From Candidatus Thorarchaeota archaeon (GTDB lineage Archaea; Asgardarchaeota; Thorarchaeia; Thorarchaeales; Thorarchaeaceae): a stretch of DNA of 47,081 nt. The notes under the pieces are model-generated. The model was not told the origin of the DNA and did no database searches. It saw nothing but the letters and a program-made list of their open reading frames with translations. The DNA is taken from the NCBI GenBank assembly GCA_048884785.1, contig JBHLQM010000021.1:1-47081 (forward strand), written 5' to 3'. The position numbers and the translations under genes were made by a program. Of this stretch, positions 1 to 5,653 are shown one piece after another; position 1 is the stretch's first letter, and each line of letters begins with the position of its first letter.

Positions 1-99
1 CTTCGCTAACCCTCCTCCAAGCCCTAGTACGCTTTAGATACAACGGTGGATGACCTCGCGTCATTGTTCCTCGAATTCCTTCCTCGAAACCCACATCTT
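1..99 (-). repeat. Most diverged displaced copy of the actin 3' end (R3), with partial terminator; truncated by the window edge
   Basis: 34-99 on the minus strand reads [20 protein letters not shown]-stop, versus actin [21 protein letters not shown]-stop. There are 13 nt differences in 66, with 9 codons changed synonymously. CTAGTACGC motif at 24-32. Confidence 0.92.
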
Positions 100-155
100 A
101 CGTCGTTGCATATACTTTTCTTATTCATTCCAAGGCGGGCTCTGAAGATAGATTA

Positions 156-1985
156 TTGAAGGGATTGATAGTGAAAGAGTATTCAACGGTTGTAAAATGT
201 CTTCGAGCAAAGATGGAGAGGTGGACTGAATCAGGTCCTGCAACAGGTGCAGCTTTCTCTGTAGTTGCAACAGATGGCCCAATATTCTCAGAAGGTTATG
301 GCTACAGAAACCTTGCTAAGTCTGCAAAGGTCGATAGGGAAACCATCTTTCAAATTGGGTCCACCACAAAAATATTCACGGGACTTGCATTCATGCTTGC
401 TGTTCAGGACGACCTAGTGGCTCTAGATGATAGGCTTGTGGATCATTGGCCTGAGTTCACAATACATAGTCGATATGGGGAGGCTGAATTTCGTAAGATT
501 ACATTCAGGCATCTTCTATCACACCGCTCAGGACTCCCTCGAGATCCGAGAGTAGGAGGTATCTTTGGTTGTCATAAGAAGTACACATTCGAAGAAATGG
601 TAGAGAGCCTTAAGGACTGTTGGATGGTTGCTCCAGTTAACGATAGGTACTATTATTCCAATGTCGGTATGGATACAGTGGCTTACGCACTACAGAAGAT
701 AACTGGAATGAAATATCCAGAATGGGTCAAACAGAAGCTGGGTAGACCTTTAGCGATGTCAACTCTTAGATATGGAGGTGCTGAGGCACTCCAAGAAGAC
801 AATGTTGCCATTGGAAGTGAAGACGGAGTTCATGAAATCACATTTGCTTCATCAGAAGATTATGGTTGTGGTGACGTCTGGATTGGGAATATTGACCTTG
901 CAAAGGCATTGAACCTACTTTTGAACGAAGGTTCCTATGAAGGAGAGGAAATACTTGAGAAACAGCTATTTCGTGAGATCACTAGGCCTCACTTTGCGAG
1001 AGAAAAAGGACACCAGTATGGTCTTGGTGTAGATATAATGAATGGGTTTACTCCTATGATTCTAAGTCATGGGGGAGGGTCACTTGGTTATGCATGCAGC
1101 CTTTACTGGATTCCAAAGTATGGCTTCGGAGTCTGTGTCCAAACAAACTGGGAATCGCTTGGTGGCAAGAAGAATCCCCATACTCTGGCTACAGATGCCC
1201 GTGAGGATTTACTAGGAGTGCATGGTGCCTCATTGGCTAGGCCGATTCCTGATGGATTTCTTGCTGAAGATGTTGTGAGGCCAGCTGTTACAGATCCTTC
1301 TAATCTTGTTGGTTTCTATGCAGGTCTCTGGAATGCATCTGTCATAGTTTCATTTCGGGAAGGTAGATTGTATTGGCATGATAGATGGGAGATGACAGCA
1401 AAGGGGAACGGATACATTCTCCCATCAGGAAATGCAGTTCGATTCAATTTCAAATCAAAGAAATCGAGGACCCCCTATTATCTTACTTACGTGAATCCGC
1501 GTTATCCAGTAGCCATGTTGAATATGTACCGCGTGAAACCTGTTGAACCTCCTTCCCAGCTACAGTTTATCGATGAGAGTACCTCAGAGCAATTGACTGG
1601 AATCTACAAGGCAATATATTATGGAGGCGAGTTTACTTTCAACTTAGCTCTTGTCAAAGAAGGACAGCTCTTCATCCAAACAGACTACGGACTAAGACCC
1701 GTCTACCCTCATGAGTCTAAAGAAGGACTCTTCTTTTTAGGGTACGGGGAAACGGTGCTCTTTGAAGGTGATGAGTTGAGTGTGGGGAATGTACGAGGTG
1801 TGAAGTGGCTGAATCCAGTCGAAGAGTTGGATGACCTTGCAAAGAATAACACAAATCATAGACTCTTGGTCAAGTGGCGACTTGACCAGGTTGCTTCACA
1901 CTTGAAGACTCTAGGAAGAACTAATGAAGCAAAGGAGGTCCTCAAAATCAAGAAGGAGCTCTATCCGCCAAAGAAGAAGAGATAA
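156..1985 (+). CDS. Serine hydrolase, beta-lactamase class C/PBP-like family, with C-terminal extension (cassette gene)
   Basis: SxxK (GSTTK), LLSHRSGL, YxN (YYYSN) and HGG motifs; no obvious signal peptide; the start may be GTG at 171. Confidence 0.88.
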   Translation: MKGLIVKEYSTVVKCLRAKMERWTESGPATGAAFSVVATDGPIFSEGYGYRNLAKSAKVDRETIFQIGSTTKIFTGLAFMLAVQDDLVALDDRLVDHWPEFTIHSRYGEAEFRKITFRHLLSHRSGLPRDPRVGGIFGCHKKYTFEEMVESLKDCWMVAPVNDRYYYSNVGMDTVAYALQKITGMKYPEWVKQKLGRPLAMSTLRYGGAEALQEDNVAIGSEDGVHEITFASSEDYGCGDVWIGNIDLAKALNLLLNEGSYEGEEILEKQLFREITRPHFAREKGHQYGLGVDIMNGFTPMILSHGGGSLGYACSLYWIPKYGFGVCVQTNWESLGGKKNPHTLATDAREDLLGVHGASLARPIPDGFLAEDVVRPAVTDPSNLVGFYAGLWNASVIVSFREGRLYWHDRWEMTAKGNGYILPSGNAVRFNFKSKKSRTPYYLTYVNPRYPVAMLNMYRVKPVEPPSQLQFIDESTSEQLTGIYKAIYYGGEFTFNLALVKEGQLFIQTDYGLRPVYPHESKEGLFFLGYGETVLFEGDELSVGNVRGVKWLNPVEELDDLAKNNTNHRLLVKWRLDQVASHLKTLGRTNEAKEVLKIKKELYPPKKKR

Positions 1986-2020
1986 CCTAATGCTTTTGAG
2001 ATGATTTGGTCAGGATTGGC

Positions 2021-2137
2021 AAAAGGGAGAGAAAGAAGGGAGCCTTGCTGGCTCGCCTTCGTTTACTAGTACGCTTTAGATGCAGCGGTGGATGACCTCG
2101 GGGCCTTGCTCTTCAAACTCCTTGCGTGAGACCCACA
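2021..2137 (-). repeat. Displaced copy of the actin 3' end plus terminator (R2)
   Basis: 2076-2137 matches actin 4514-4575 with 2 synonymous changes. CTAGTACGC at 2066-2074, hairpin at 2035-2060, AAAAGGGAGAG tract at 2021. Confidence 0.97.
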
Positions 2138-2168
2138 AACTCGATTTCGAGCAATTTGACATAGATTA

Positions 2169-2369
2169 TCAATCAGCTGAAGTGGATTCTTGTTCAATTC
2201 GCATGAAAAGAATCCCTGTAAGAAAGGCAATTGCTCCAAACGGAAAAATGACGAAGGGGAGGTGAGCAAAAATCCAAGGATCAATATCATAAAATGGGTT
2301 ATGAAGCTGCAAGAGTAAAGCCAAGAATATGACAAACGCACCACCCATCGCTAGGTGCTTGCCGGTCAT
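2169..2369 (-). CDS. Small two-TM membrane protein (cassette gene)
   Basis: 66 aa with two hydrophobic segments; GGAGGT Shine-Dalgarno just upstream of the ATG. Confidence 0.6.
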   Translation of the reverse strand: MTGKHLAMGGAFVIFLALLLQLHNPFYDIDPWIFAHLPFVIFPFGAIAFLTGILFMRIEQESTSAD

Positions 2370-2539
2370 TTAGAAACCTCCGATTCCTCTAATATCATCG
2401 TTTTCACATAATCATACTGGTGCAAACAATATAGCTCCCATTTTTCGTATCCAAGGTAGGACCACCATTCTTTGGATATCAATACGCACTCAATCCAGCG
2501 AAAGAAAAGAAATAGGATTGAATCAAGATGTGTTCTCAT
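2366..2539 (-). CDS. Possible 57-aa peptide (MRTHLDSILFLFFRWIECV...EESEVSK)
   Basis: Translated manually; below the ORF-track cutoff. Its stop overlaps the start of the 66-aa ORF (ATGA). Confidence 0.3.
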   Translation of the reverse strand: MRTHLDSILFLFFRWIECVLISKEWWSYLGYEKWELYCLHQYDYVKTMILEESEVSK

Positions 2540-2563
2540 AAGAAGAGATGATTGAAATGCCTC

Positions 2564-2676
2564 AAAGGGAGAGATAGAAGGAGAACTCTGCTAGTCCTCC
2601 TTCGTTTGCTAGTACGCTTAGATACAGCGGTGGATGACTTCGGGGCCTTGCTCTTCAAACTCCTCGCGTGAGACCC
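2564..2676 (-). repeat. Displaced copy of the actin 3' end plus terminator (R1)
   Basis: 2618-2676 matches actin 4514-4572 with one change (AAG to GAG, K to E). CTAGTACGC at 2609-2617, hairpin at 2577-2603, AAAGGGAGAG tract at 2564. Confidence 0.97.
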
Positions 2677-2736
2677 GAGGTAAATCGACAACTATTTGTT
2701 TGATATGGGTTCCTCTCAAGAATAAGGGGATTAGAA

Positions 2737-4452
2737 ATGGGAGTTAGATTACTATCTAAATGGGTGGTATGGTCTGGGACTAAACAAAATGAAAGCCTGA
2801 ATTTCTCAGCTGAATCTGACACACAATATGCAGTTCATATTCTTGGCTTTGCTCAGAGAGCATTCTCTGGTAATTATACAATTCTTGTGAATGATAAGAA
2901 GATAACCACTTCAAAGGTGTCCGGTAATTTTGTAGATACAATCAGCATAGGACATCTTGAAGCTGGAAAGGGGTATAAGCTAACAACAGAATTAGAATCT
3001 AAGAAAGGTGAATGGCAAGTCACACTTTATCTTACAGACAGATTCCCTAACGGAAATGTGCCTAGCAGGGCATCTAAAGAAAGAGATCCTCTTCGTCTAA
3101 TTAGTCTAGTTGCTCAATTGAAGAGAGATCGAAGACTTCACGAAGCAAAATATCTTCTTCAAATAATGAGGAAGAAAGCACCTACTAACAATATGATAGC
3201 GCAAGCTTTAGATGAATTGAAGGATGTTGACATATCATTTCAAGAACATTCACCAGAACCAGAGTATGAGGGGATATTTGACCCGAGATTGCTAATCGCA
3301 GCAGGAGATAATTTCCATCGGGAAGGAAACTACTCTGCGGCAGAATTTGCATATAAACAAGCATTGGAGAGAGATCCTTCTAATGCAACAGTCTGGGTTA
3401 ATCTAGGTGTAGCACTTGCTAGACAAGGACGCCCAAAAGAAGCGGAAAATGCATACCGTACAGCAACTGAACTGGATTCTAAGTATCTTCTTGCGTTCAA
3501 TAATCTTGGTGCAATCCTAATAGAGCAAGAGAGATTTGAAGAAGCTATTATTCCAATAGAACATGCAATTTCTCTCGATAAGAATAATCATATTTTATGG
3601 CATAGTCTAGGAATGGCATTCTTCCATCTCAAAAGACACTCTGATGCAAAGGAGGCGTTTGAGAAAGCTTTGATAATCGATCCAAGAAGTGTTCCAACTT
3701 TGATTTCACTTAGTCTGGTCTTCAGAGAGTTAAAGGAATTCAAAAGAGAAAATGAAGTGTTGCAACAAGCAGTTGCATTAGATCCAACACTGATTCAGAA
3801 ACTCAAACTTGGTGCATTGGAATTGGATGATAAGTTGGTAGAACTTAAGGAGATGTTTGCAAAGAGTCAAGAATTGATATCTCTGAAGGAATTCGATAAG
3901 GCATTTGATATTCTAGTTAAAGCAACCAAGAAATTCCCTGAATCTGGCGACATACTTGGAAATATAAAGAATATACTTCCACAGACTAGGCTGAAAGAGT
4001 TCACATACAATTGTCCTACTTGCAATTTCACTAGCAAAGTTCAGCTTCAGCCATCACTTGGTCCAGATGTTGCAATTCTTCAAATTGGAATACATGCCAA
4101 GATGTTTGCAGAAGTTCCAGATAGTATTAAACAGGTTACATGTGGTGCATGTAAAACTCCTGGAGGAGTTACAATTTCACTATGTTTGGATTGCTTTGAT
4201 GGGTTTAAGGGAGTGCTTCATGAACAAACAAGTCGAAAAAATTACTCCTACAACTGTGATAAATGCAATAAACCACTGACAACTAGGGCTGAGAAATCTG
4301 AAACACAATTGAAGCAATTTGAAGAATTGAGAAGAAGAGCTGAGGTAGTCAGCATTGCTATTCAGCGGGTTGATTCTATATTTCCTAAATTCCAATATGA
4401 GAGAGTGCCAATATCAAATCAATCCTATTCATTGTTGAAAGAAAAGAAATGA
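2737..4452 (+). CDS. TPR-repeat protein with N-terminal beta-rich domain and C-terminal Zn-ribbon region (cassette gene)
   Basis: Several TPR motifs (e.g. AEFAYKQALERDPSNATVWVNLGVALARQGRPKEAENAY) and four CxxC motifs (CPTC, CGAC, CLDC, CDKC); visibly more AT-rich than actin. Confidence 0.85.
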   Translation: MGVRLLSKWVVWSGTKQNESLNFSAESDTQYAVHILGFAQRAFSGNYTILVNDKKITTSKVSGNFVDTISIGHLEAGKGYKLTTELESKKGEWQVTLYLTDRFPNGNVPSRASKERDPLRLISLVAQLKRDRRLHEAKYLLQIMRKKAPTNNMIAQALDELKDVDISFQEHSPEPEYEGIFDPRLLIAAGDNFHREGNYSAAEFAYKQALERDPSNATVWVNLGVALARQGRPKEAENAYRTATELDSKYLLAFNNLGAILIEQERFEEAIIPIEHAISLDKNNHILWHSLGMAFFHLKRHSDAKEAFEKALIIDPRSVPTLISLSLVFRELKEFKRENEVLQQAVALDPTLIQKLKLGALELDDKLVELKEMFAKSQELISLKEFDKAFDILVKATKKFPESGDILGNIKNILPQTRLKEFTYNCPTCNFTSKVQLQPSLGPDVAILQIGIHAKMFAEVPDSIKQVTCGACKTPGGVTISLCLDCFDGFKGVLHEQTSRKNYSYNCDKCNKPLTTRAEKSETQLKQFEELRRRAEVVSIAIQRVDSIFPKFQYERVPISNQSYSLLKEKK

Positions 4453-4457
4453 TTTAG

Positions 4458-4513
4458 AAAAGGGAGAGAAATGAAGGAGGGGAACGCTCCCACTCCTTCA
4501 GATACTAGTACGC
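4458..4513 (-). terminator. Actin 3' UTR: GCGTACTAG motif, hairpin and pyrimidine tract
   Basis: Inverted repeat TGAAGGAG-GGGA-acgc-TCCC-a-CTCCTTCA (4472-4500), followed on the minus strand by TTTCTCTCCCTTTT. Confidence 0.75.
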
Positions 4514-5653
4514 TTAGATACAGCGGTGGATGACTTCGGGGCCTTGCTCTTCAAACTCCTTGCGTGAGACCCACATCTTCTGGAACGTCTTTAGCGAAGC
4601 AAGAATGCTTCCGCCAATCCAGACAGAGTATTGTCTCTCTGGAGGAGCGATGATTCGGACCTCGATGTTCTCTGGGACTAGCTCGGTGATCTCCTTGTGG
4701 AGCCTCTCCTTGAGTCCTGGGAACATGGTTGAACCGCCTGACAGGACAACGTTAGCGTATAGGTCACGTCGTAGGTCAACGTCACAAGCCTTGATGGACT
4801 CGACAATGTGCTCATCGAGTGGCATTGTGTCTAGGCCAATTGCACTTGGGTTGAAGAACAGCTCAGGTGCTTGGAAGCGCTCTGCACCGACTGTGATCAC
4901 CTCACCGTCTGGCAGCATGTAAGGCTTGTCAACACCAGCCTTGTCTGCAACGGTCCTCTCCCTCTCGGGGTCAAGGGCTACGTAGCAGAGTTTCTCCTTG
5001 ATGTCACGGACAATCTCCTTCTCTGCGCCGCTCACGAATGAGTAGCCTCTCTGTCTGAGAAGTCTGCGCAGATACTCGGTGATGTCACGTCCTGCAAGGT
5101 CAATTCTTCGAATGGCATGGTTGATTGAGAAGCCCTCGTACACAGGGACAATGTGGGTGACACCATCGCCAGAGTCAATAACTAGACCGGTCGTCCTACC
5201 TGATGCGTACAGTGATAGCACAGCCTGAGTCGCAACATATACAGCGGGAACGCCGAAGTTGTCGAACATCACGGATGCCATGCGTTCTCTGTTCTCTCTC
5301 GGGTTGAAGGGTGCTTCAGTGAGCAACACTGGGTTCTCACTTGGGTCGATCTTCAAGTCGTTATAGAATGTGTAGCTCCATATCTTCTCGATTGCGTCCC
5401 AGTCCTCTACAACACCGTGTGTGATTGGATACACCAAGCGTAGTACACCACGGAGGTTGATGGCCTCTTCTCCGATGTAGTAATCGCGAGTATAGTGGTC
5501 AACGTCTGTCATGATACTCTCATATCGGGGATAACCGATGAGAGTGGGCCAGACGCTTCGGGGCTGATCTTCGCCGGCATATCCGTTCTTGCTAAGGCCA
5601 GTGCCATTGTCGATGACAACTGGCTTTGTTCCAAGAAACTCGTCTTCAGCCAT
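4514..5653 (-). CDS. Asgard actin (eukaryote-like actin)
   Basis: [68 protein letters not shown] and [12 protein letters not shown] motifs; ends in HRCI. Likely start is MAEDEF at 5653. Confidence 0.98.

Follow-up and report, generated by a model that had tools for sequence, protein, structure and literature searches.

What does a row of displaced gene ends behind an archaeal actin gene record? The question is raised by contig JBHLQM010000021.1 (C21; GenBank assembly GCA_048884785.1) of a Candidatus Thorarchaeota archaeon, whose entire length of 47,081 nt was analysed and is referred to here as the window. The genome under study, G000, is represented by an assembly of 3.6 Mb that is 91% complete. 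The window carries an Asgard-type actin gene that ends in a compact tail module—last codons, stop, hairpin, and CT-rich tract—and direct repeats of this live tail, the displaced tails R1 to R3, recur with increasing distance from actin (BLAST of the live tail against the genome, E = 1e-13 to 1e-32; a repeat search of the window independently recovers the tail copies). Between them lie blocks of unrelated genes. The G000 blocks span 0.4–2.2 kb and occupy both strands: those for a TPR-repeat protein and a protein of beta-lactamase fold are on the plus strand, those for a 66-aa product, an S9 peptidase and a GNAT protein on the minus strand. An earlier note on this DNA had taken the copies for a chronological record like that of an integron or a CRISPR leader end, in which new cassettes are added next to actin, older ends are pushed outward, and divergence grows along the way. 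We find the direction of growth to be supported and the divergence to tell something else. By analogy, the actin-tail array would be an instance of a polar island pattern that is already known, without the enzymes that define this pattern having been found here.

Tail divergence and distance from actin

The rise that gave the array its appearance of a clock, 1/59 differences for R1, 2/62 for R2, and 13/66 for R3, is reproducible (over 57–59 nt for R1 and 60–62 nt for R2), and it stems from one outlier, R3. Owing to a break of the assembly at this point, the window opens inside this copy. An exact 77-nt overlap links the window start to contig C140 (4047 nt), and a further 77-nt overlap links the start of C140 to the reverse complement of C47; the scaffold joins C47-C140-C21 rest on these overlaps. 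As a separate observation, about 17 G000 contigs contain exact 77-nt duplicates 177 nt apart (e.g., C8:48270-48346 and 48447-48523), which look like assembly artefacts because 77 nt is the contig-overlap length. On C140, a block with an S9 prolyl-oligopeptidase is followed in turn by the additional tail copy R4, a block with a GNAT protein, the partial copy R5', a small open reading frame (ORF), a TetR gene, and accessory genes. When the copies beyond the window are included in the alignment, the series for R1 to R4 reads 0.018, 0.033, 0.197, and 0.042 and is not monotonic: R4, located beyond R3, is nearly identical to the live tail, so that a distal copy is as close to it as the proximal ones, and the gradient is not borne out as a record of time.

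The part of the tail in which neutral decay should show best points the same way. In the 58 nt 3' of the stop codon, identity to the live tail amounts to 43, 43, 40, and 46 of 58 for R1 to R4, and since there is no trend, this flat non-coding half counts against a clock. In adjacent pairs from the seven Thorarchaeota arrays that hold two or more displaced copies, the farther member is the more divergent in 7 cases and the less divergent in 3 (sign test, p=0.34). In favour of decay after displacement, with divergence recording the order of insertion, are the increments from R1 to R3, the higher divergence of the second copy as compared to the first in L066, L099 (G003), L113, and L135, and the accumulation of disabling changes (non-synonymous or stop-loss) in distal copies. 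Against it, G013 and L126 run opposite, the farther copy in L126 being the closer to the live tail, and the nearest copy in G013 (18%) being as divergent as the farthest (21%). Taken as a set of sequences, the arrays may show a weak tendency of divergence to rise with distance, which would make no usable clock, and we regard the decay scenario as improbable.

What, then, does divergence reflect? In all genomes examined, the actin C-terminus ...KEFEE[Q/A/V]GPEVIHRCI* can still be read from the displaced tails. Among the codon differences of 36 displaced tails, 103 are synonymous and 39 non-synonymous (73% synonymous), where random single-base changes in the tail would be expected to be synonymous in only 19% of cases; the 36 tails are non-independent copies, and the bias is nonetheless very large. 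The tails therefore diverged at a time when they formed the ends of working actin genes. In line with this, R3 itself differs from the live tail by nine synonymous codon changes and two others (Gly to stop, Pro to Arg), and all three displaced tails of G013 are 18–22% away from the live one with zero non-synonymous change.

R3 also matches the live allele of another species. Its coding part has 8 differences to the live tail of G005 as compared to 13 to that of its own genome, its 58 downstream nt are 47/58 identical to G005 and 40/58 to G000, and its hairpin is likewise closer to the G005 live tail. Conversely, the displaced copy in G005 has a hairpin and downstream sequence of the type that is live in G000 (54/58 identical), and a single hairpin, live in G000 and G006, forms part of the first displaced copy in G003 and G005. 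Tail types have evidently been exchanged between species. In G000 itself, the live tail, R1, R2, and R4 are 96–100% alike in their coding parts and differ by about 20–25% in their hairpins; R2 and R3 share one extra A after the stop codon. Judging from these alignments, tail modules are mosaics, and the divergence of a copy reports its source lineage instead of the time since it was displaced. Divergence fails as a clock because the tails come from different lineages and later recombine with each other. A divergence clock along the array should thus not be used; what can be read from a copy is its donor lineage.

Evidence for growth next to the actin gene

The other half of the earlier claim, that new blocks enter next to actin and push older tails outward, gains support from evidence independent of divergence, namely the position of an ancestral neighbour gene and comparisons of arrays, all of them between species (two metagenome scans, one querying the tail plus 9-mer and one the live hairpin, returned no strain-level relatives). 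The ancestral neighbour, a gene of 155 aa, lies directly 3' of the tail in L081, L086, L092, L096, and L119; its position in G004 is almost the same. The G000 counterpart is located 10.6 kb downstream of actin, at the far end of the inserted DNA. In L091, the 155-aa gene has kept a decayed tail, with a 0.96-kb block between this tail and actin.

Variability is greatest beside actin, and the extra block is on the actin side in four between-species comparisons. L113 has an additional 404-nt block plus tail there relative to L066, L118, and L100; the first block of L103 and L134 is the second in L066; L067, L135, and L105 contain one more proximal block than L088; and L105, compared to L067, bears a further 570-nt insert straight after the hairpin, where a remnant of the CT tract alone is left. 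At the other end, a distal GNAT-TetR-MBL stretch is common to G000, G002, and G003, with differing proximal blocks. Arrays of this kind are not confined to a few genomes: a scan for the tail peptide in one genome per species returned 73 stretches, nearly all from Thorarchaeota, with more than 20 contigs holding 2–4 copies.

Polar addition at the end of a gene is reminiscent of two described systems. Prochlorococcus tycheposons form additive islands at tRNA genes, made by element-encoded tyrosine or serine recombinases and containing integrase remnants (10.1101/2020.12.28.424599). As in these islands, partial 3'-end copies of the target gene separate the insertions of the actin array, and new material sits next to the gene with older material pushed outward; unlike in these islands, no recombinase was found in the genome or the blocks, the anchor is a protein-coding gene, and the blocks are single genes. 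In the WHO elements that occupy FBA1 of Torulaspora and Lachancea yeasts, every unit brings an endonuclease gene, the fragments all start at one cleavage site, and displaced fragments serve as homology for repair (PMC7282813). There, too, the 3' end of a housekeeping protein gene is replaced repeatedly, leaving displaced fragments and cargo with the newest nearest the gene. The actin array differs in that no endonuclease was found, its boundaries, though clustered in part, span 21–66 nt, and its cargo consists of unrelated accessory genes. The polar additive pattern is that of tycheposon islands and WHO clusters, and searches for the enzymes that define these two systems were negative. Searches of the literature on Asgard archaea, actin and attachment sites, and Thorarchaeota integrons yielded no description of such an actin array.

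From the proposed likeness to integrons and CRISPR, only the pattern remains. The array shares with integrons and integrase-less attC clusters its stacked single-gene cassettes and a repeated element with a hairpin of conserved shape and variable sequence, and with integrons an apparently polar growth and toxin-antitoxin cassettes (HepT/MNT in G003 and G013), as they occur in large chromosomal integrons. Unlike in integrons, the repeat includes coding sequence of the anchor gene and the blocks occur in both orientations, so that a fixed cassette orientation is missing. An IntI-type tyrosine recombinase beside the array was not found (PF00589 is negative in G000 and the blocks), nor were attC sites, for whose R''/L''-L'/R' boxes we searched by eye without running an attC model. 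The hairpin as an attC-like recombination site was considered and rejected because actin in relatives without arrays is followed by the same 27-nt element; similar yet distinct hairpin plus CT-tract ends follow other anchors (C116, C149). By its distribution, the hairpin is actin's own 3' element. Independent of this, the block genes on the plus strand (TPR, beta-lactamase fold) end 0–35 nt from a tail hairpin (4448-4475, 1984-2025), and each hairpin may be a two-way terminator shared by convergent genes.

Proposed recombination in the tail and its alternatives

Which process builds the array? We lean toward an additive, integrase-less genomic island that is anchored on the actin tail and built by recombination in the tail. 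Each growth step would be a recombination inside a zone of ~110 nt (~66 coding nt, stop, hairpin, and CT tract), by which foreign DNA lands directly behind actin and brings the donor's tail, while the old tail, cut at a variable point, would remain joined to its former downstream DNA. Repeated steps would stack the blocks and leave the oldest material farthest from actin. As the engine, we infer host homologous recombination and not an integrase. The long arm of homology would be supplied by the conserved body of the actin gene and the short one by any of the tail copies, an arrangement that would explain why turnover is concentrated beside the gene. New junctions might result when ends in the tail zone are, on rare occasions, joined illegitimately or when a break is repaired there.

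Host recombination is favoured because a recombinase was not found, because the same architecture exists at other anchors, and because of where homology ends in a unit shared by L066 and L113: this unit comprises a hairpin, a block, and a partial coding tail, and homology stops at the stop codon. Such an end is consistent with, albeit no proof of, crossovers in the coding tail, the sole part conserved between lineages. As to recombinases, neither PF00589 nor PF00239, the tyrosine and serine families, has a match in G000 (PF00589 at E<=0.01; all control genomes match), and PF00589 was not found in 15/26 family genomes, including the array-bearing G014. No mobility or nuclease domain was present in any block scanned with Pfam, several small ORFs being without match.

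Several points weigh against tail recombination as the whole explanation. The left boundaries of displaced tails, which range from 21 to 66 nt in addition to hairpin-only remnants, are non-random: 13/34 fall at 48–52 nt, others cluster at 59–66 nt, and several are located inside AAGATGTGGG or immediately ahead of it. Recombination at purely random breaks would not lead one to expect this clustering, which hints at a preferred cut or crossover site. Longer stretches of homology should recombine more readily, yet none of the displaced fragments seen exceeds ~70 nt. Nor does the model account for how the first tail-block-tail unit came about. Block B is present in L066 and absent from L113, an internal gain or loss because of which the order of blocks is not strictly chronological. 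And with a genome that is 91% complete, a recombinase could be missing, or belong to an unrecognised family. A preferred break site or an unrecognised enzyme may be involved.

In site-specific integration, an integrase, provided in trans by a virus or plasmid or since lost, would use the actin tail as attB. Each block would be what is left of an element with an actin tail in its attP, much as is known for tycheposon islands and for elements that target tRNAs. The direct orientation of the 3'-end copies of a conserved gene (live tail and R1–R4), the same pattern at tRNA tails in G000, the boundary clusters described above, the polarity as published for these islands (10.1101/2020.12.28.424599), and the preserved reading frame of the tails, which an attP that has to restore the gene would predict, would all fit. 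We nevertheless consider it unlikely, given the negative recombinase searches, the lack of integrase fragments in the blocks, blocks as small as 0.3–0.4 kb, the spread of boundaries together with remnants that are a hairpin or CT tract only, and the existence of a 5'-end duplicate on C12. The sole integrase on an actin contig, in G009, was rejected as the array enzyme, as it is encoded 13.6 kb from the tail without an adjoining tail copy.

Equally, one may think of homing in the manner of WHO elements, wherein an endonuclease cuts the tail of sensitive actin alleles and repair copies a resistant tail with its adjacent block, displacing the old tail. The yeast FBA1 pattern (PMC7282813)—a replaced 3' end, old ends outward, and the newest nearest the gene—is matched, tails differ mainly at synonymous sites, boundary hotspots exist, and the live tail of G013 is the odd one out. 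Yet, no endonuclease domain was found in the blocks scanned, these being unrelated accessory genes; in a sliding identity comparison between species, actin is no more diverged at its 3' end than elsewhere; and the many different anchors would each need their own nuclease, so we give this scenario little credence. Local tandem duplication of the tail with distance-dependent gene conversion from the live tail, by which near copies look young, is the least credible: coding parts that are alike while hairpins differ resemble patchy conversion (live, R1, R2, R4), but R4, at a distance of 6.8 kb, is as similar as R1, unrelated genes lie between the copies, and tail types are common to several species in different positions, grouping by type across species being partly seen.

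If host recombination on conserved gene tails is indeed at work, it would give diverged Asgard lineages a simple means of gene exchange and call for caution with phylogenies that use the 3' end of Asgard actin. The arrays are of interest in their own right, as they grow gene-proximally and carry accessory genes and toxin-antitoxin pairs, with no recognisable recombinase found.

Other anchors and further observations

In G000, comparable arrays occur at tRNAs, a ribosomal protein gene, two further protein genes, and an RNA-like 3' end (Table 1). Blocks at these anchors measure 0.5–4 kb (TPR, GNAT, ParE, NosD, flavodoxin) and are without integrase. We tentatively put forward, as a broader and less secure idea, that Thorarchaeota possess a general, integrase-free form of gene capture, in which conserved genes whose expression is presumably high (actin, tRNAs, uL2) might lend their tails as portable homology; single-gene blocks from diverged lineages would be stacked, shuffled, and exchanged with integron-like polarity, and the 3' end of actin, a eukaryotic-signature gene, would repeatedly be swapped between lineages.

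Table 1. Coordinates of the actin locus, its displaced tails and blocks, and related features (positions without contig name refer to the window)
Feature	Location	Strand	Description and evidence
Actin gene, array anchor	4514..5653	-	379 aa, Asgard-type; Pfam Actin PF00022, 447 bits; translation
Live tail module	4458..4579	-	Alignment of copies; hairpin scan
Live tail, coding part	4514-4579	-	Last 63 coding nt and stop
Live tail, 9-mer	4505-4513		CTAGTACGC (also given as GCGTACTAG)
Live tail, hairpin	4473-4499		27-nt perfect stem-loop, terminator-like
Live tail, CT-rich tract	4458-4472		On actin strand
Block A	2737..4452	+	TPR-repeat protein, 571 aa, convergent on actin, ends at tail hairpin; Pfam TPR families
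R1	2563..2676	-	Displaced tail, 57-59 coding nt, 1 non-synonymous difference (K to E), own hairpin variant
Block B	2169..2369	-	66-aa ORF without Pfam match
R2	2020..2137	-	Displaced tail, 60-62 coding nt, 2 synonymous differences, own hairpin variant
Block C	156..1985	+	Serine hydrolase of beta-lactamase fold, 609-aa ORF; Pfam PF00144, 162 bits
R3	1..99	-	Displaced tail, 66 coding nt, 13 differences; continues on C140 (3944-4047)
R4	C140		Tail copy, more distal than R3, 6.8 kb away; 2 differences/48 nt, both synonymous
R5'	C140		Partial copy, 3' stem and CT tract only
tRNA 3' halves	C9:34-6457, C99:47-895, C29:23273-24856		Other G000 anchors, up to 4 copies
Ribosomal protein uL2 tail	C149:131-3103		Other G000 anchor
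Two protein tails	C67:12587-14798, C116:259-5087		Other G000 anchors
RNA-like 3' end	C72:98-4906		Other G000 anchor
33-nt insert in live actin	L056:1888-1920		G006
33-nt insert in live actin	L048:16786-16818	-	G013 = L076
33-nt insert in live actin	L108, L114

Further duplications were noted in the same genome. On C12, a promoter-like upstream region plus the first 20 codons of a gene is duplicated 2.2 kb upstream of the intact gene (1662-1792 and 3887-4017); the upstream copy runs into a dead-end ORF of 54 aa and represents a 5'-end counterpart of the tail arrays. At least 15 dispersed copies of a 19-codon unit (MAREIFGPDYLQYRQEKQM*) are found on C116, C89, C100, C113, C96, and C109, each copy in C116 being followed by a GAGAGAG hairpin and a CT tract. 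Among the actin arrays of other genomes, HepT/MNT toxin-antitoxin blocks occur in two genera (L047:6090-7175 in G003, together with DUF433, and L048:8539-9364 in G013). In L101 (E44_bin77), the first 322 nt past the live tail include a piece with homology to the beginning of the S9-peptidase block of G000, joined directly to a partial tail of 37 nt, as if an illegitimate join had cut a gene short.

Finally, the live actin of at least four Thorarchaeota genomes contains a 33-nt insert exactly between ...TFQ(K/N) and MWVS, a position that is also the commonest long boundary of displaced tails. The insert encodes a conserved AAPISVAAW-like peptide and closes with an in-frame stop abutting, or nearly abutting, the ATG of the canonical tail ending in ...HRCI*. 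Either actin ends differently in these genomes, the canonical tail having been displaced by no distance at all, or translation bypasses the stop or reinitiates behind it. With regard to a spliced intron, two insert sequences were folded, of which one folds well (z = -4.3) and the other does not (z = -0.6).

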